Origin: Planctomycetota bacterium
Lineage (GTDB): Bacteria; Planctomycetota; UBA1135; JADKAF01
DNA: 64,000 nt
Reading direction: 5' to 3'
Assembly (NCBI GenBank): GCA_016793245.1
Contig: JAEUHW010000351.1
Location: 5,987-69,986, forward strand
Part shown: in pieces, positions 7,769 to 17,107 of the stretch
How positions within the stretch are numbered: position 1 is the stretch's first letter
Layout: every line of letters begins with the position of its first letter
Position numbers and translations under genes: made by a program
The notes under the pieces: generated by a model
The model's input: the letters and a program-made list of their open reading frames with translations, nothing else
The model's database searches: none
What the model was told of the DNA's origin: nothing

Positions 7769-7818
7769 GCGACGAAACGCGGCGGGCCAGCGAATGCTGG
7801 CCCGCTGCGTTTCGTCGC
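7769..7818. terminator. long GC-rich hairpin between convergent korB and the 7848..8942 gene (putative bidirectional terminator)
   Basis: GCGACGAAACGCGGCGGGCCAGC-GAAT-GCTGGCCCGCTGCGTTTCGTCGC forms a 23-bp stem with one G-U pair. There is no clean U-tract outside the stem. Confidence 0.55.
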
Positions 7819-7847
7819 CCGGAGTCGTTCGTTGTGCGACGCGCGGG

Positions 7848-8942
7848 TCAGCGCGAGAGCAGCTCGCGCAAGTGGAACGCCGCGCCTTCGCGATCTTCCG
7901 CGGGTTCGAAGGCGAGGTCGTCGAGAGCCCAGCGGCCGTTCTTCTTCGACCATTCGACCAAGTAGGAGCCCGCGGGGGTCGCGACCTCGACGGAGCCGCG
8001 CGTCGCCGAGAGCGGGAGCGCCCCGGGTCGCACCCAGGAGCGCAGGCGCTCGTCGAGGCCGCCGAAGGAGCTCAGCGCTTCGGCCAGAGCCTTCCCGTCG
8101 GGGCGCTCGGCGCCCGCCTCCAAGTGCACCCCCGCGAGGAGCTCGGCGCCGTCCTTCGCCGCGATCGCGCGGCGCAGGTTCTCGACGAGCGGCCCGGCCG
8201 CGCTCGCCGGATCGAGCTCGAGAGCGGAGCTCGAGAGCACCTGCACCGCGAACGCGCTCGAGCCACGCCGCACGACCTCCTCGGGCGCGGTGCCGAACAT
8301 GAGCTCGCTCAAGCAACCCGTCAGCGTCATCGGCGCGAGATCCATCTCGGGAATGACGCGCCCCGTCGCCGGCTGCACGCTCTCGAACTCGATCTCGAAT
8401 TCCGCGACCGGCCAAGCTGCGGGGCCCTTCTCCTGCTCCTCGCGCGCGGCGCCGAAGCGCAGTCGCACGCCGTGCAGCAGCTCTTCCTTGCGCGCGGCGG
8501 GCCGCGGCTCGGACTTCCCTTCCTGGTGCTCTTCGGGGCGCAGCTCGTGCTCCGAGCGGATCTGGAGCTCCCAGTTCGCGACGACGTGCTGCGCGTCCGC
8601 GGGCAGGCCCTCGATCTTCGGGCTCTGCTCCAGCGCCGCGCGCTGGAACTTGCCGGCGTGCGAAGCGAGGAGCGCTCCGGCGTGCTTCAGGCCCTGGGCG
8701 AAGGCTTGCTGCTCTTCCTTGCCCATGCCCTCGCGCATCTCGCGAGGTTGGAACGGCAGCACCTTCGCGGCCTCGCCGCTCGCGAGAGCGTCGAGGAAGG
8801 CGCGCGCCTTCTCACCGAGGAACCCCGCGGGGAGGCTCTGCGCTCGCGGCTCCTGTGCCGCGAGCTCGCCGACGAAGAGAACCAGCGCGCCGAGCGCGCC
8901 GCCGATCGAGATCGTACGCATGCGCATTCCCATGATCGCCAT
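7848..8942 (-). CDS. secreted hypothetical protein (364 aa)
   Basis: N-terminal signal-like segment (RTISIGGALGALVLFVGELAAQEP) and a balanced, non-Arg-biased composition. No family recognised. It lies 72 nt downstream of the sigma-factor gene on the same strand. Confidence 0.7.
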   Translation of the reverse strand: MAIMGMRMRTISIGGALGALVLFVGELAAQEPRAQSLPAGFLGEKARAFLDALASGEAAKVLPFQPREMREGMGKEEQQAFAQGLKHAGALLASHAGKFQRAALEQSPKIEGLPADAQHVVANWELQIRSEHELRPEEHQEGKSEPRPAARKEELLHGVRLRFGAAREEQEKGPAAWPVAEFEIEFESVQPATGRVIPEMDLAPMTLTGCLSELMFGTAPEEVVRRGSSAFAVQVLSSSALELDPASAAGPLVENLRRAIAAKDGAELLAGVHLEAGAERPDGKALAEALSSFGGLDERLRSWVRPGALPLSATRGSVEVATPAGSYLVEWSKKNGRWALDDLAFEPAEDREGAAFHLRELLSR

Positions 8943-9013
8943 CCTCGCGCCAGCGCGCGTCGTGCTCGACGAGAGCTGGAACGACGCGGCGCGGCTATGT
9001 GCTCGCCGGCGGT

Positions 9014-10069
9014 TCAGATCTCGTCGACCTTGTGCTTCAACCTCTTCCGCAGACGCTCCATCAAGTTGGAGTGGATCTGGCAGACGCGCGACTCCGTGAT
9101 GTTCAGGCGCTCGCCGATCTCGCGCATCTTCAGCTCTTCCTTGTAGTAGAGCAGCAAGATCAAGCGCTCCTTGTCGGTGAGCCCTTCCAGCACCTTCTGG
9201 AAGCCGTCCTCGACCTCGAGCCGGCGCCCGGGCCGCAGGTCGGCGTCCTCGTGCGCCATCTCGGAGAACGGCTCCGAGCCGTCGCCTTCCTCCGCCTCCA
9301 CCTCGCCGTCGGTGAAGTTCTTCATCGAGTACGTGACGGCTTCGCGACTCTCGACCTGGAAGTCGGAAAGAGCGAGCCCCAAGTGCTCGGCCAGCTCGGG
9401 ATTCGTGGGCTCGCGTCCGAAGGCGCCGATCAGCTCCTCGCGCGCGCGATCAAAGCGCTGCGCCTTCACGCGCACGGCGCGCGGCACCCAATCCTGCGAG
9501 CGCAGCTCGTCCAGGATGGCGCCCTTGATGCGCGAGGCGCAGTAGGTCTTGAAGGTGCCGCCGCGCTCGGGGTCGTAGGCTTCGAGCGCGCGGTAGAGAC
9601 CGTGGATGCCGGCGCTCGAGAGCTCCTCGAGATCGACGCAGCGCGGAAAGCGCCGCAAGAGGCTCGACGAGACGTGCCGGACCATCGGGTAGTAGCACTC
9701 GAGGAGCGCGTTCCGCAGGTTCGGGTCGCCGGTCTTCTTGTACTCGTAGAAGAGCTCCTCGGTGCGGCGGTCCTCGAAGCGCGCCGTGGGGCACGCACCG
9801 TGCAATCCGAGGTCCGCGACGCGCTCTTCGCTCCAGCCGAGGCCGCGCAAGACATCGGCGCAGCGCCCGAGGCGTTCGACGCCGAGCACGGCGTGCAGAA
9901 GCAAGCCGCCATGGAGGCGGCGGAGCAGGAGCTGCGGATCGCGGCCCTCCGCGCCGGAGAAGAGCGCCGGGAGCGGCGCGCCCTTGCCGTTCTTCGGCGC
10001 GGCCGTCGCGCCCTCGTCCGAGCCCGCGTCGCGCGAGCCGCGCGAGCCCTTCGAGCCTTGCTTGTTCAT
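9014..10069 (-). CDS. FliA/WhiG-type (group 3) sigma-70 family RNA polymerase sigma factor
   Basis: Region 2 (YYPMVRHVSSSLLRRF...DLEELSSAGIHGLYRALEAYDPERGGTFKTYCASRIKGAILDELR), region 3, and a region 4 HTH (LLLYYKEELKMREIGERLNITESRVCQIHSNLMERLRK). The start was chosen at the ATG that forms an ATGA overlap with the upstream gene's stop. The roughly 100-aa N-terminal extension makes this start uncertain. Confidence 0.85.
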   Translation of the reverse strand: MNKQGSKGSRGSRDAGSDEGATAAPKNGKGAPLPALFSGAEGRDPQLLLRRLHGGLLLHAVLGVERLGRCADVLRGLGWSEERVADLGLHGACPTARFEDRRTEELFYEYKKTGDPNLRNALLECYYPMVRHVSSSLLRRFPRCVDLEELSSAGIHGLYRALEAYDPERGGTFKTYCASRIKGAILDELRSQDWVPRAVRVKAQRFDRAREELIGAFGREPTNPELAEHLGLALSDFQVESREAVTYSMKNFTDGEVEAEEGDGSEPFSEMAHEDADLRPGRRLEVEDGFQKVLEGLTDKERLILLLYYKEELKMREIGERLNITESRVCQIHSNLMERLRKRLKHKVDEI

Positions 10070-10662
10070 GCTTCGCGCACCCGATCGAGGAGCGCTTGCC
10101 GCGTGCGGCTCCAGCGCCGGAGAACTTCGTCGCGAGGAACGCCGCCCGCTCTCGCGACGGCGGAGGCGCGCTCGAGCTCGAGCTCGCAGCGCCGGTACAT
10201 CTCGAGGTCCACGGAGTCGATGTCGGCGAGCAGGCCGGCGATGCGATCCTTCGGCAGTCGCGGACGCACGTCCTGCACGGCGCTCTGCGCGAGCAGCGCT
10301 TGCTCGGCGAGGGTCTCCAGCGCGAGGCGCGCGATCGCATGCTCGGCGTCGTGGCGCGCTTCCACCTTCGCTTCGAGCTCGCCGGGCCCGTCGGCCACCG
10401 CGACGCTGCCCGCACCCTCGGCCTTGTCGCGGCTCTCGCGGCTCTCGCGACCGATGCCTCCGCTCTTCTCGCCGCTGATGCCTCCGCCCCTCTCGCCGCT
10501 GATGGCAGCGCGCCACGCCTTGTATTCGGCGCGCACCGTCTCGATCCAGCGCTCGCGATCGACGGCGGCCCGCAGCGCGGGCTCTTCGAGCACCGCGTCG
10601 TAGAGCACGTCCAGAAGTTGGCGCGCGCGGGGCGGTAACCCCGCGGTCCTCGCAGAGCTCAT
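10066..10662 (-). CDS. hypothetical helical/acidic protein (198 aa) start/stop-coupled to the sigma-factor gene
   Basis: Sub-ORF of 10066..11049 starting MSSARTAGLPPRARQLLDVLYDAVLEEP. The composition is protein-like, and there is an internal ISGERGGG/ISGEKSGG repeat. Its stop overlaps the sigma start (ATGA at 10066-10069). Confidence 0.6.
   Translation of the reverse strand: MSSARTAGLPPRARQLLDVLYDAVLEEPALRAAVDRERWIETVRAEYKAWRAAISGERGGGISGEKSGGIGRESRESRDKAEGAGSVAVADGPGELEAKVEARHDAEHAIARLALETLAEQALLAQSAVQDVRPRLPKDRIAGLLADIDSVDLEMYRRCELELERASAVARAGGVPRDEVLRRWSRTRQALLDRVREA
10451..10510. repeat. 24-bp tandem repeat (about 2.5 copies) inside the 198-aa ORF
   Basis: CCGATGCCTCCGCTCTTCTCGCCG / CTGATGCCTCCGCCCCTCTCGCCG / CTGATGGCAGCG. 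On the minus strand it encodes ISGE(R/K)xGG units. A GGCTCTCGC doublet lies just upstream (10431-10448). Confidence 0.7.
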
Positions 10663-10842
10663 CGGGTCTCCTCCACCGCCGTGACGACCGGACCAGCCGT
10701 TCCGGGCGCGCCCTGGGAGCCGACCGCCGCGGAACGTAGGAGCGCGACCTCGTGGAGGCGCCCTCGCCCTGCGAAGATGACAGCTCGCCCGAGGTGGCGC
10801 AACCCTCGGTCCGCGCGACCGACGCGGAACGGAGGCCCTGGG

Positions 10843-11214
10843 ATGGCGATCGAGGCAGGCGATGACGAGGAGGCGCGCGGTGACGCGGCGTCGAACCCTC
10901 CCGCCGGCTCGACCCACGCCGAGGCCCTGGCGCACTACCGCCGCGCCTCGGCGAGACCTGGCATGGCCGACGCGGGCCAGCGCATACGGAACCGCGCTTG
11001 CCCCGCGTGCCGCGGCGTGGTCCCCTTCGAGGAAGAGCGCTGCCGACATTGCGGAGCACCGCTGCCATCGGCGCGCTTCGACTACTTCAACTACACGGAC
11101 TTCGAGCCCGACCTCGAGGCGCGCGACCTGCGCCTGCTCCGCCGCACCTTCGGCGCGGCCGCGCTCCTCGGCGCGCTCTTCCTCGCGTGGCTCCTCGTGC
11201 GATGCAGCCCTTGA
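10843..11214 (+). CDS. small zinc-ribbon protein with a C-terminal transmembrane helix
   Basis: Sub-ORF of 10681..11214 containing CPACRG...CRHCG (two CxxC pairs) and a tail TM segment (AAALLGALFLAWLLV). There is an alternative start at 10963. Its 3' end overlaps the ThiF-like start by 13 nt. Confidence 0.5.
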   Translation: MAIEAGDDEEARGDAASNPPAGSTHAEALAHYRRASARPGMADAGQRIRNRACPACRGVVPFEEERCRHCGAPLPSARFDYFNYTDFEPDLEARDLRLLRRTFGAAALLGALFLAWLLVRCSP

Positions 11215-15048: not shown

Positions 15049-15154
15049 GTCCGTCTCCGAACCCAAGGACCGGTCGATCTCGCTGCGCAGCAGAGCGGAC
15101 TCATCGCGCTACCGCCGCGCCGGCGGCGAACCAGTTTCGATCGACGTGGGTCGA

Positions 15155-15299
15155 GCGTCGACGACCGATCTCTCCGGTCGCATGAGCTCTGAAGCTCCCA
15201 CCTCCCGCGGGCTCCGGAAGGTCGAACGATGTCTTTCGACGTAGCGGAGCCGCATCCGGACGCGGCGCTTGCTTGGCCGGAGGGCTGGCGGAGCGGTCG
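15155..15299 (+). repeat. REP-like repeat, extra copy in the same orientation as the right arm
   Basis: GCGTCGACGACCGATCTCTCCGGTCGCATGAGCTCTGAAGCTCCCACCTCCCGCGGGCTCCGG...CGATGTCTTTCGACGTAGCGGAGCCGCATCCGGA...GCGGCGCTTGCTTGGCCGGAGGGCTGGCGGAGCGGTCG aligns by eye to 16588..16693 plus 16798..16835. Relative to the right arm it has a deletion of about 100 nt. Confidence 0.7.
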
Positions 15300-15386
15300 C
15301 AGCGGACGGCGCGCGCTTGAACGCAAGCAGCGAGGAGCGAGAGGCGTTCGAGCGCAAGACCGCGCAGGCGCTACGCCCGGCCCTAC

Positions 15387-15614
15387 GGCGAAGCAAGCGC
15401 CGCGCCCGACGCGCGCGTACCAAGTCGATGGTGTTCGAGCGACGACGCGCGAACGACGCGAGCGAGAAACGCGAAGCCTCGCGCGTCGTTCACGTCGCTT
15501 GCTGCGCCTCCGGGCGCGGCTCCGCTTCGTCGATGGAAGTCGTGCGCCGTTTCGGAGCCCGCTGGAGGCGGGGGCTCCGAAACTCATGCTACGGGAGAGA
15601 TCGGACGTCGACGC
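15387..15614 (-). repeat. left inverted-repeat arm of the RAYT locus
   Basis: The reverse complement aligns to 16588..16815. The core at 15540..15614 is near-identical and the outer part is more diverged, e.g. GGCGAAGCAAGCGCCGC (15387..15403) versus GCGGCGCTTGCTTCGCC. It contains the 12-bp-stem hairpin GTTTCGGAGCCC/GGGCTCCGAAAC. Confidence 0.75.
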
Positions 15615-15672
15615 GTGAACGACGTCGATGGACACGGGGTTCCACGCCCGCGCGGCGGCAGTGTGGTGCGGT

Positions 15673-16410
15673 TCAGCGCGAGTTCGCTCGGCGAATTGAT
15701 TGCGCGAGGTTCGCTGGGGGGCGACCGGCGTTCTTGTTGTGCGGAGTCGCGCGGATGTCGAGCAATCCGTGGCGACGCCAGCCGGCGGTGAGGAGCCAGG
15801 TCAAGGCGGGCGCGACGGTGGCCACCACCAGCGGAGCTGGGATCGATGCGATCGACGGGCGCTCCTTCCAACCCTCGAACACGGGCGCGCTCGAACAGAG
15901 ATCGATCGACGCTTGCGGCACGACTCCATGCTTCTTGCCGTTCTGCAGCACGTAGCGCAGCGCGTTCCGCGCCTGCGTCGGCGTCGTGATCACCTCGTCG
16001 TGATAGCGATCGGGGAACACCTTGCCGCGACGGCCCCAAAGCTTGTTCAACGCGCGTGCCAGTGGGCTCAGCAGAGCGTTCATGGCACGCGCGACGCACT
16101 CTCGATCGTCGGCCTCGACCAGGAAGTGCAAGTGGTTGCTTTGCACGGTGGTGTGGATGATCCGCATTCCGTGGCGATCGCTGCTCGCGCTGAGCGCCGC
16201 GAGCACGAGCTTCAGAGCACCGCCGCGGCGCAGCGACGGCAGGCCATCCGCCAGACGCACGGTGATCAAGAGAGGCTGGCCGCGCTTCTTCCTCGCGCGC
16301 TGACGGTGCGGCATGCCCGCCTCGGCATTCTTCGGCTTCCGTCCCGCGCCCTTCCGCTTGCCACCATGCTGACGAAAGTCGAACTCGAGCTGTTGAACCT
16401 TGCGGCGCAT
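15673..16410 (-). CDS. REP-associated tyrosine transposase (RAYT; IS200/IS605-like Y1 HUH transposase)
   Basis: 245 aa with an HUH motif (SNHLHFLVEA) and a catalytic Tyr helix (ARNALRYVLQNGKKHG). A strong SD (GGAGGAGGAGGAAG) lies 6 nt upstream of the ATG. The gene is flanked by the inverted REP-like arms. Confidence 0.85.
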   Translation of the reverse strand: MRRKVQQLEFDFRQHGGKRKGAGRKPKNAEAGMPHRQRARKKRGQPLLITVRLADGLPSLRRGGALKLVLAALSASSDRHGMRIIHTTVQSNHLHFLVEADDRECVARAMNALLSPLARALNKLWGRRGKVFPDRYHDEVITTPTQARNALRYVLQNGKKHGVVPQASIDLCSSAPVFEGWKERPSIASIPAPLVVATVAPALTWLLTAGWRRHGLLDIRATPHNKNAGRPPANLAQSIRRANSR

Positions 16411-16587
16411 GCGTCTTCCTCCTCCTCGTTACGCGTCGCCTTCCCCGATGTCGTTCCAGCATGGAGAACGCAGAATGGGCCTCTTGGGTTTCCTAGCAAG
16501 TCGGAAACTTGATACGGCGACGTTGTTCGCTGCCCGAACTCGCTGCACCGCGCGGGCGACGAACCGATGTCTCTCGACGCGGACCTC

Positions 16588-16836
16588 GCGTCGACGTCCG
16601 ATCTCTCCCGTAGCATGAGTTTCGGAGCCCCCGCCTCCCGCGGGCTCCGAAACGGCGCACGATGTCTTTCGACGCAGCGGAGCCGCATCCGGAGGCGATG
16701 CAATCGACGTGACCGCCGCGCTCGCTCACGAATCGCGTTCGACGTCGTGCACGCTCCGACGCGCGGTGTCGTTCGACGTCCTTCACGCGCGGCGGGCGCG
16801 GCGCTTGCTTCGCCGGAGGGCTGGCGGAGCGGTCGT
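16588..16836 (+). repeat. right inverted-repeat arm of the RAYT locus
   Basis: The core is GCGTCGACGTCCGATCTCTCCCGTAGCATGAGTTTCGGAGCCCCCGCCTCCCGCGGGCTCCGAAACGGCGCACGA (16588..16662), with a hairpin at 16619..16653. Extended similarity to both left-side copies continues to about 16836. Confidence 0.75.
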
Positions 16837-17107
16837 CGCGAACCTCGCGTTCGAAGGTTCGCGCGCGTCCCGGGTTCGGGTGCCATCCGCGCGTCGACGA
16901 TGCGGATTCAACGGCTTGAGCCGTTCTGCCAGCGAACACGCTGACAGCGTGATCCGTTGCACCAGCCAACGTGCTAGCAGGGCTCGGTCGAAGCCCCGCT
17001 AGTGGTCTGATCTACGCTAGCCTCGCGCATCGACCGAGCGCCTTCGCGACGGAAGCGAAGACACATCGCAGCGCACGATCCGCGGAGCGGAACTCCGCGA
17101 GCTTCGC

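Follow-up and report, generated by a model that had tools for sequence, protein, structure and literature searches.

A Probable TIRtron-Like Repeat in Planctomycetota That Carries a RAYT-Like Gene Between Long Structured Inverted Arms

Introduction

When a gene related to the REP-associated tyrosine transposases (RAYTs) lies between inverted hairpins, does it serve a family of dispersed repetitive extragenic palindromic (REP) sequences, or is the gene itself part of what is repeated? The question is raised by a locus in a 64,000-nt stretch of a Planctomycetota genome assembly (GCA_016793245.1, contig JAEUHW010000351.1), which we refer to as the window. Here, an open reading frame (ORF) of 245 aa is flanked by long inverted arms that each contain a hairpin, and a decayed third arm lies next to them. 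RAYTs serve as the standard example of a bacterial transposase that has been domesticated: a genome has one copy of the gene and short REP or REPIN repeats by the hundreds. An initial annotation of the window followed this model, reading the arms as a possible new REP family and the third arm as REPIN-like.

We arrive at a different answer. With a probability of roughly 0.72, positions 15309-16903 are one copy of a ~1.6-kb repeat that is dispersed in Planctomycetota and has the arrangement of the TIRtron/TIRYT elements, followed by the stump of a tandem copy at ~15068-15308, and the locus is not a REP/REPIN system. TIRtrons or TIRYTs have been described as RAYT-like genes that lie between long terminal inverted repeats (TIRs), some of them self-complementary, in place of REPs (Di Nocera et al., 2013, PMC3733652), and TIRYTs have largely been equated with subclass 2.1 of the TnpA-Y1 transposases (Quentin et al., 2018, PMC6006769). 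Below, we present the copies of the unit, its arms and its protein, and weigh this reading against three others.

The Repeated Unit and Its Copies

A search with the 245-aa protein returned 3016 relatives, dozens of which come from Planctomycetota metagenome-assembled genomes (MAGs) at 78-87% identity, and at least 12 protein clusters originate from a single contig, JADKAF010000001 (7.06 Mb), of a related Planctomycetota MAG. We fetched 11 loci from this contig, which hold 13 copies and together with the window give a set of 14 copies at 12 sites. The contig thus contains at least 13 copies of the unit in unrelated contexts, and each of the 13 consists of 5′ arm, gene and 3′ arm, with arms that are 74-93% identical to those of the window. 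The order is the same in every copy: a 5′ terminal segment of ~75 nt, a 5′ arm of ~300 nt, a leader of ~160 nt, the ORF of ~245 aa, a 3′ arm of ~280 nt and a 3′ segment of ~50 nt. Similarity between the window and the JADKAF01 copies is confined to 15309-16899 and the flanks are unrelated; therefore, the whole 1.6-kb unit, gene included, is what is repeated. Two proteins of the family (P0001 and P0002) are encoded on the window's own 88,389-nt contig and, as the window holds one copy, the second paralog (P0002) must lie outside it. The locus is not a solitary insertion sequence (IS)-like relic, one of two outcomes that the initial annotation had named as fatal to its REP reading.

In the window, the unit is on the minus strand. 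Its 5′ terminal or outer segment (16850..16903), delimited by the 14-copy alignment and by blastn of the outer segment, is where conservation across copies begins, and it is closed by the terminal motif CGTCGACGCGCGG... at 16880-16899 (plus-strand coordinates). The 5′ arm, called the right arm in the initial annotation, follows at 16548..16849; it is non-coding, ~300 nt long and 82-93% identical to the 13 other 5′ arms. A conserved leader (16411..16547 in the alignment) connects it to the start codon of the ORF (15673..16410). The 3′ arm (15377..15655, the former left arm) measures ~280 nt, is ~80% complementary to the 5′ arm and shares 85-98% identity with the 3′ arms of other copies. The 3′ terminal segment (15309..15376) consists of GGGCGTAGCGCC..., a degenerate heptamer tail (CTCTCGCTCCTCGC) and then TTCAAGCGCGCGCC. 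Across the copies, this segment closes with a microsatellite of 1 to ~12 heptamers, usually (TTCTCGC)n, and then TTCACGC. At one locus (L009, ~11070-11130), (TTCTCGC)n is followed by (CA)n(CT)n.

These copies bear directly on the classical REP/REPIN-RAYT explanation, according to which a domesticated, near-single-copy RAYT spreads the hairpins that flank it. The inverted hairpins on both sides of the gene do have the geometry of a REPtron, but the gene is present at least 13 times per 7 Mb, each time with its own arms. Moreover, when two mismatches were allowed per half, 228 kb of JADKAF01 sequence and the 64-kb window yielded the hairpin core in gene-flanking arms alone, whereas ~290 kb of a REP-rich genome would give dozens of cores outside such arms, and a scan of metagenome contigs for the exact core CGGAGCCCCCGCCTYC-N0-1-GCGGGCTCCG gave 0 matches. 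The repeat unit is also of another size, 280-300 nt plus the gene as against 20-40 nt. Hence, the proposal of a new REP family is not supported, since the core occurs, in the ~290 kb sampled, only in arms attached to genes or their remnants and the repeated entity is the 1.6-kb unit with its gene. Beyond these genomes, a protein scan of metagenomes found relatives at no more than 49% identity, and tblastn against plasmids found no homolog.

One locus (L008) seemed to contain orphan pieces of arm, which turned out to be a 5′ arm split by an insertion together with the remnant of an upstream tandem neighbor. The ~2-kb insertion (L008:7711-9748) interrupts the 12-bp main hairpin of this arm in its left half and encodes, on the opposite strand (7790-9313), a 507-aa reverse transcriptase of the group II intron type (RVT_1 E 3.8e-33, a weak GIIM match and a YADD motif). 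This retroelement appears to have targeted the hairpin.

Tandem Copies and the Third Arm

Next to the complete unit, and head to tail with it, the window holds a truncated second element on the minus strand (15068..15308), made up of 5′-arm-type sequence and the first ~45 nt of the leader. The initial annotation had placed this third copy at 15155-15299, in right-arm orientation and lacking about 100 nt. The copy is real, as are its orientation and an internal deletion of ~95 nt, while its extent has to be widened to ~15068 to ~15308. Its hairpin has decayed and no longer folds (z +0.85). In the REP/REPIN explanation, the third copy and the left arm would be a REPIN doublet, and the two do lie tail to tail. 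But the third copy carries sequence diagnostic of 5′ arms (GCATCCGGA; GGGCTGGCGGAGCGGTCG) and runs inward to the first part of the leader (CTCTGCTGCGCAGCGAGATCG), breaking off beside the MobA-like gene; it is cut off adjoining the stop codon of that gene (15048). Because of these diagnostic and leader sequences, and because four JADKAF01 loci have a similar layout, we regard it as the truncated 5′ end of a tandem element and not as half of a REPIN. The inverted fragment at 15387-15403, which had been listed as following the third copy in a REPIN-like arrangement, is not a separate piece but the outer tip of the left arm.

Among these four loci, L003 and L007 each contain two complete units head to tail, with the microsatellite at the join, and in L001, L004 and L007 a complete unit is directly followed by a stump in which a 5′ terminal segment leads into the initial 20-60 nt of a 5′ arm. 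In all, about half of the 12 sites show signs of at least two adjacent copies. The microsatellite sits exactly at the junctions of tandem units, at 15323-15345 in the window, L003:11060-11160 and L007:11040-11120.

Structure and Conservation of the Arms

Inverted similarity between the two arms of the window (15377-15655 and 16548-16824) amounts to 80% over ~280 nt, and the right arm goes on to 16849. Arms of 277-302 nt that are 80% complementary are present in all 14 copies. The inverted arms of the initial annotation are thus real, but with ~280-300 nt they are longer than the ~230-250 nt given there. Its description of the core stands: 15540-15614 and the reverse complement of 16588-16662 differ at the one position claimed (74/75 identical), and each core contains a hairpin with a 12-bp stem. 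The pattern GTTTCGGAGCCC-N11-GGGCTCCGAAAC, which forms the stem and 11-nt loop of this main hairpin, has exactly two sites in the 64-kb window, at 16619-16653 in the 5′ arm and 15549-15583 in the 3′ arm, where shuffled sequences lead one to expect 0. Folded as single-stranded DNA, either strand of the core forms the 12-bp-stem hairpin at -17 to -21 kcal/mol (z -2.8 to -3.95). The foot of the hairpin speaks against a REP system as well: no GTAG is conserved at the stem. The conserved foot is CATGAG, and in the arm alignment GTAG occurs 7 nt upstream of the stem in one subfamily only. Against Rfam, the hairpins gave only a sub-threshold match to the Xanthomonas small RNA sX12 (24 bits; gathering score 106).

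The structure consensus was derived from an alignment of all 25 arms. In this consensus, every arm has the main hairpin and, around a variable loop of ~70 nt, a long interrupted stem; in the 5′ arm of the window this stem spans 16694..16814, with 16694-16721 pairing with 16787-16814. For the main hairpin and the long stem together, 99.2% of the alignment cells are paired, compared to 35-52% when the partner columns are slid. Compensatory changes occur at three pairs in this alignment. Two positions of the main hairpin change from TA to CG, in the 3′ arms of L006 and L011 and in both arms of L010, and one pair of the long stem is CG in all 5′ arms and AT in all 3′ arms. As these changes come from few independent events, they lend moderate support to the view that the structure of the arms has been kept. 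A structure selected over the full length, in which the two arms of one element pair as a "panhandle", was also considered and rejected. Full-length identity between the arms of one element averages 81.0% (diagonal mean) and that to the arms of other elements 79.5% (off-diagonal), and there is no whole-length co-evolution.

On a smaller scale, the inner ~120 nt of an element's own two arms are patchily homogenized, up to 100% identity in L002 and 97.6% in L010. In the window, the core matches the element's own other arm at 92.5% and the 3′ arms of other elements at 85.9% on average. This homogenization accounts for the 74/75 core match, and the main hairpin of the 3′ arm accordingly lies within a ~75-nt patch (15540-15614) that is near-identical to the element's own 5′ arm.

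The arms also change slowly. The mean synonymous difference of the genes is 0.31 and the corresponding value in the arms 0.10-0.14; by this measure, the arms are more conserved than expected under neutrality, evolving two to three times more slowly than synonymous sites. Codon periodicity, clear among the variable sites of the gene (0.33/0.23/0.59), is absent from those of the arms (0.31/0.43/0.44 and 0.34/0.39/0.35). An ORF that crosses the 5′ arm has 0 homologs in the protein collection, which agrees with non-coding arms and is uninformative on the number of arms.

Each unit has three to four sites of a short motif, GTCGACGCGAGAAC(G/C): one marks the extreme 5′ terminus, and the others belong to, or lie close to, a small hairpin that neighbors the main hairpin of each arm. 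In the window, the motif is found at 16880-16899, 16574-16594 and 15606-15628, and in L011 at 9481, 9785, 10775 and 10942. By direct reading and in the motif map, the small inner hairpin of the 5′ arm (16574..16594) that bears GTCGACGCGAGAAC reads TCGACGCG-GACCT-CGCGTCGA. The 5′ terminus looks like the left half and loop of this small GTCGACGCGAGAAC hairpin, a resemblance that may reflect a role as cleavage site or guide.

The Transposase

The 245-aa protein is a Y1 HUH enzyme that is nearer to RAYTs than to IS200 transposases. This assignment is based on model scores of 50.6 bits for the NCBIfam model REP_Tyr_transpos (cut-off 80) and 15.2 bits for the IS200 TnpA model NF033573 (cut-off 55), both below their cut-offs, and on the best fold match. 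Thus, the RAYT-like character proposed initially is upheld, and grouping with ordinary IS200 TnpA, the other outcome that would have spoken against it, does not apply. Against Pfam, the ORF reaches 22.7 bits with Y1_Tnp, just below the cut-off of 23. When the query and 21 family members were compared to Pfam at E <= 0.1, Y1_Tnp was the only match, and no helix-turn-helix (HTH), DnaA_C-like or other extra domain was found.

The HUH and tyrosine motifs were read correctly at the outset. In the 21-member family alignment, H93, H95 and Y153 are invariant, with HLH (residues 93-95) being part of NHLH and Tyr153 part of RYVLQN. The tyrosine motif is YVLQNG or YVLNNA (Y---N[GA]), in which the Asn of the class-2 motif Y---NP is kept and the Pro is absent. 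Also invariant are a basic N-terminal motif, GGKRKGAGRKPK, the residues CSS (172), which follow the Tyr helix, and a C-terminal region rich in Trp; both terminal regions are specific to the family. AlphaFold gives a confident model of core residues 45-165 only (predicted local distance difference test, pLDDT, 80-94), with low confidence in the C-terminal region. Its best fold match is 4ER8, the Escherichia coli TnpA_REP with a REP hairpin (E 2.3e-6, root-mean-square deviation 3.3 Å over 135 columns); the IS200, IS608 and ISDra2 transposases come next, and in total 30 Y1 transposase chains of the Protein Data Bank (PDB) match at E < 1e-3. By sequence, a PDB search with the single protein found nothing relevant, and one with the family profile gave only borderline matches to ISDra2 TnpA (E 0.03) and 4ER8 (E 0.1).

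The protein therefore offers something to two other explanations. That the RAYT model outscores the IS200 model, and that the closest structure is TnpA_REP bound to its REP hairpin, is what a REP/REPIN system would predict as well; taken with the number of copies, the size of the unit and the leader in the third copy, such a system nevertheless appears very unlikely. An ordinary insertion sequence of the IS200/IS605 family, moving by single-strand "peel and paste", would likewise be multi-copy and have a Y1 HUH fold, and it can claim the weak profile match to ISDra2 TnpA as well as the IS608, ISDra2 and IS200 structures as close seconds in the fold search. The ends of the unit, though, are reverse complementary over ~280 nt, while IS200/IS605 elements have hairpins on the same strand and no terminal inverted repeats. 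Furthermore, the tyrosine motif is Y---N[GA] and not Y---Q (PMC6006769, Table 1), the IS200 model gives only 15 bits, and the unit contains no tnpB. Copies within the genome are 72-92% identical, compared to ~99% for IS200 subclass 1.1 (PMC6006769). Finally, the orientation of 12 copies shows no bias relative to local GC skew, with the gene-sense strand positive in five and negative in seven, which fits symmetric ends and is unlike IS200/IS605. We consider an IS200/IS605 element the most improbable of the explanations weighed here.

Age, Selection, and Exchange Between Copies

All copies are old. Whole-unit DNA identity ranges from 72 to 92% between pairs, with no pair at 95% or above, and no relative in the protein collection is 90% or more identical to the window protein. 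Of the 14 ORFs, 11 are intact; stops or frameshifts disrupt those of L010 and L011, and L004 lacks its 3′ part. The median pairwise dN/dS (ratio of non-synonymous to synonymous rates) is 0.21, with 0.31-0.33 among nearest neighbors and 0.17-0.2 for distant pairs. Most ORFs have stayed open, and the rates show purifying selection on them. Patches of identity point to gene conversion between copies: L003a, L003b and L005 share the same or almost the same leader at a dS of 0.25-0.32 in the genes.

These features raise the possibility that the units are a long-lived multi-copy family of host genes, for instance for the processing of single-stranded DNA, that are not or no longer transposons and have spread by duplication and recombination, with arms that are cis-regulatory or structural. 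The age of all copies and purifying selection on many paralogs at once would be expected of such a family, the tandem arrays and mosaic patches (identical leaders in L003a and L003b at a gene dS of 0.32; homogenized own arms) point to recombination and gene conversion, and RAYTs are generally seen as domesticated (PMC5581495). On the other hand, the unit has sharp boundaries and unrelated flanks at 12 sites, for which segmental duplication does not account. The stops and frameshifts in L010 and L011 and the 3′ loss in L004 resemble decaying mobile DNA, the higher dN/dS among nearest neighbors is as in transposon families, and many homologs in other MAGs are found at the ends of contigs, which is typical of repeats. 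A host gene family is thus unlikely, if less so than the two preceding alternatives.

Comparison With Known Systems

TIRtrons or TIRYTs are the closest described kind of element, and the planctomycetal family shares their defining arrangement, a RAYT-like Y1 HUH gene between long terminal inverted repeats that are unrelated to GTAG REPs. The protein, too, is longer than core RAYTs (245 aa; the median of subclass 2.1 is 238) and has a serine motif, here CSS, after the catalytic Tyr. There are also differences. The arms are 280-300 nt long, with at least two conserved stems, and lack the GGGGWSAS motif of many TIRs. The unit is present at least 13 times per genome and often in tandem, whereas TIRYT genes have been described as one to a few per genome. 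Unlike in subclass 2.1, no C-terminal HTH-like domain (Bac_DnaA_C, HTH_23, HTH_28) is detectable, and the tyrosine motif is without the Pro of the Y---NP signature (PMC6006769, Table 1).

With the REPtrons of E. coli, Pseudomonas and Stenotrophomonas (PMC3116915, PMC5581495, PMC8266576), the family has in common the Y1 HUH fold with 4ER8 as best match, the inverted hairpins that flank the gene and, by analogy, folded single-stranded DNA as the probable substrate. It differs in that the hairpins are not dispersed alone, the gene is multi-copy (~1-2 in REPtrons), a conserved GTAG foot is missing and the repeat unit is ten times longer. TnpA-Y1 subclass 2.3 of Chromatiales and Alteromonadales comprises multi-copy, diverged class-2 TnpA proteins with added N- and C-terminal domains (PMC6006769) and resembles our family in its many diverged copies. 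Its proteins, however, have ~325 aa, the motifs NHYH and YVDLNP and two core insertions, as opposed to 245 aa with NHLH and YVLQNG here, and no flanking secondary structures have been reported for it, in contrast to the conspicuous structured arms of the planctomycetal unit. Like IS200/IS605 elements such as IS608 and ISDra2, the unit is multi-copy, encodes a Y1 HUH transposase and has hairpins set back from its ends as probable recognition elements; its inverted arms, other Tyr motif, old and diverged copies, lack of tnpB and lack of a replication-strand bias (12 copies) set it apart.

Some distant homologs (36-42% identity) have long inverted arms of their own. In a Polyangia MAG (L018), they lie at 9653-9884 and 10551-10781 and measure 233 nt. 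Those of a soil contig (L044; 555-712 and 1468-1626) have at least 159 nt and those of a gammaproteobacterial MAG (L024; 9908-9978 and 10583-10653) 71 nt; both are strongly self-complementary, with ~-50 and ~-28 to -30 kcal/mol, respectively. A single Gammaproteobacteria MAG, IRC1_bin_7, contains seven homologs at 41-50% identity (L014, L016, L025, L028-L031), most of them at contig ends, which suggests that, in unrelated lineages too, members of the wider protein family form multi-copy repeats.

A Possible Mechanism

If the unit is a TIRtron-like element, its transposase would, like E. coli TnpA_REP and IS608 TnpA, bind hairpins of single-stranded DNA, in this case those of the arms, and cleavage and rejoining would proceed through a 5′-phosphotyrosine link at Tyr153. 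This chemistry would mobilize the whole unit, or would once have done so. The analogy draws on 4ER8, on the IS608 and ISDra2 complexes and on in vitro work with TnpA_REP (PMC8266576). The motif GTCGACGCGAGAAC, by virtue of its positions at the 5′ terminus and by the main hairpins, may help to choose the cleavage site or target, and a preference for landing beside an existing copy may yield the tandem arrays. The long stem of each arm would draw the outer end near the hairpin in folded DNA, which may matter for the reaction.

Several observations weigh against the interpretation of the unit as a TIRtron-like mobile element. The arms are inverted, and excision of the whole unit from a single strand in the manner of IS608 would need cuts on opposite strands. 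The hairpins lie ~200 nt inside the outer ends. Among the copies, no empty site, excision junction or general target duplication has been established, and there is no sign of recent movement, given that no pair of copies reaches 95% and no protein relative 90% identity. The count of intact ORFs is, on terminal branches, weakly informative and not decisive, as neutral change would leave 45-65% of the copies free of stops. Moreover, the absence of orphan arms refers to ~290 kb sampled around the genes, and most of the distant homologs examined are without long arms.

As to the ends of the copies, L011 has a direct repeat of ~17 nt, GGAA(C)GCGTCGACGCGA, at both ends (9470-9497 and ~11075-11100), the sole candidate among the copies for a target duplication or a repeated target. 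The ends of the other copies show diverged stumps of neighboring elements in place of direct repeats.

Other Features of the Locus

The gene adjoining the truncated element encodes a MobA-like nucleoside triphosphate transferase (Pfam E 2e-26), as the initial annotation had stated; for the other neighbor, which had been called a HEAT protein, the HEAT match is weak and sub-threshold. No tRNA genes were found near the element, which is therefore not a tRNA-targeted island.

The leader contains an inverted repeat, GTTTCC-N9-GGAAAC (16488-16508), that resembles the foot of the main hairpin (GTTTCG...CGAAAC) and could be a third binding site or an operator. A scan of the leader for sigma-70-type promoters found none, and terminator-like sites are at chance level. 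Beyond the usual 5′ boundary, ~110 nt (16900-17012), in which small hairpins such as AACGGCT-TGA-GCCGTT occur, have counterparts only in the corresponding flanks of L004 and L010, at 72-76% similarity. This similarity among the window, L004 and L010 might represent either an extension of the element that is specific to this subfamily or a common older remnant.

Implications

Being 1.6 kb long and often arrayed in tandem, the repeats will fragment MAG assemblies of this Planctomycetota group, where they are now annotated merely as "transposase". With a RAYT-like gene as the repeated unit and structured inverted arms under selection, they provide a concrete system for studying how a Y1 enzyme handles inverted ends. 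The same family bears on the question of whether such elements persist for long without bursts of copying.

A further, tentative interpretation is that the units are autonomous RAYT elements that persist as a population through mostly vertical inheritance, each like a REPIN that still holds the transposase gene between its inverted halves, kept functional and inserting preferentially beside old copies. We regard this as possible but doubtful. If true, the family would probably constitute an undescribed TnpA-Y1 subclass, marked by Y---N[GA], the GGKRKGAGRKPK N-terminus and a Trp-rich C-terminus. The origin of the RAYT state from an IS200-like ancestor has so far been inferred and not observed, and a population of this kind would represent an extant stage between IS200-like transposons and RAYT/REPIN systems with their domesticated single-copy gene.

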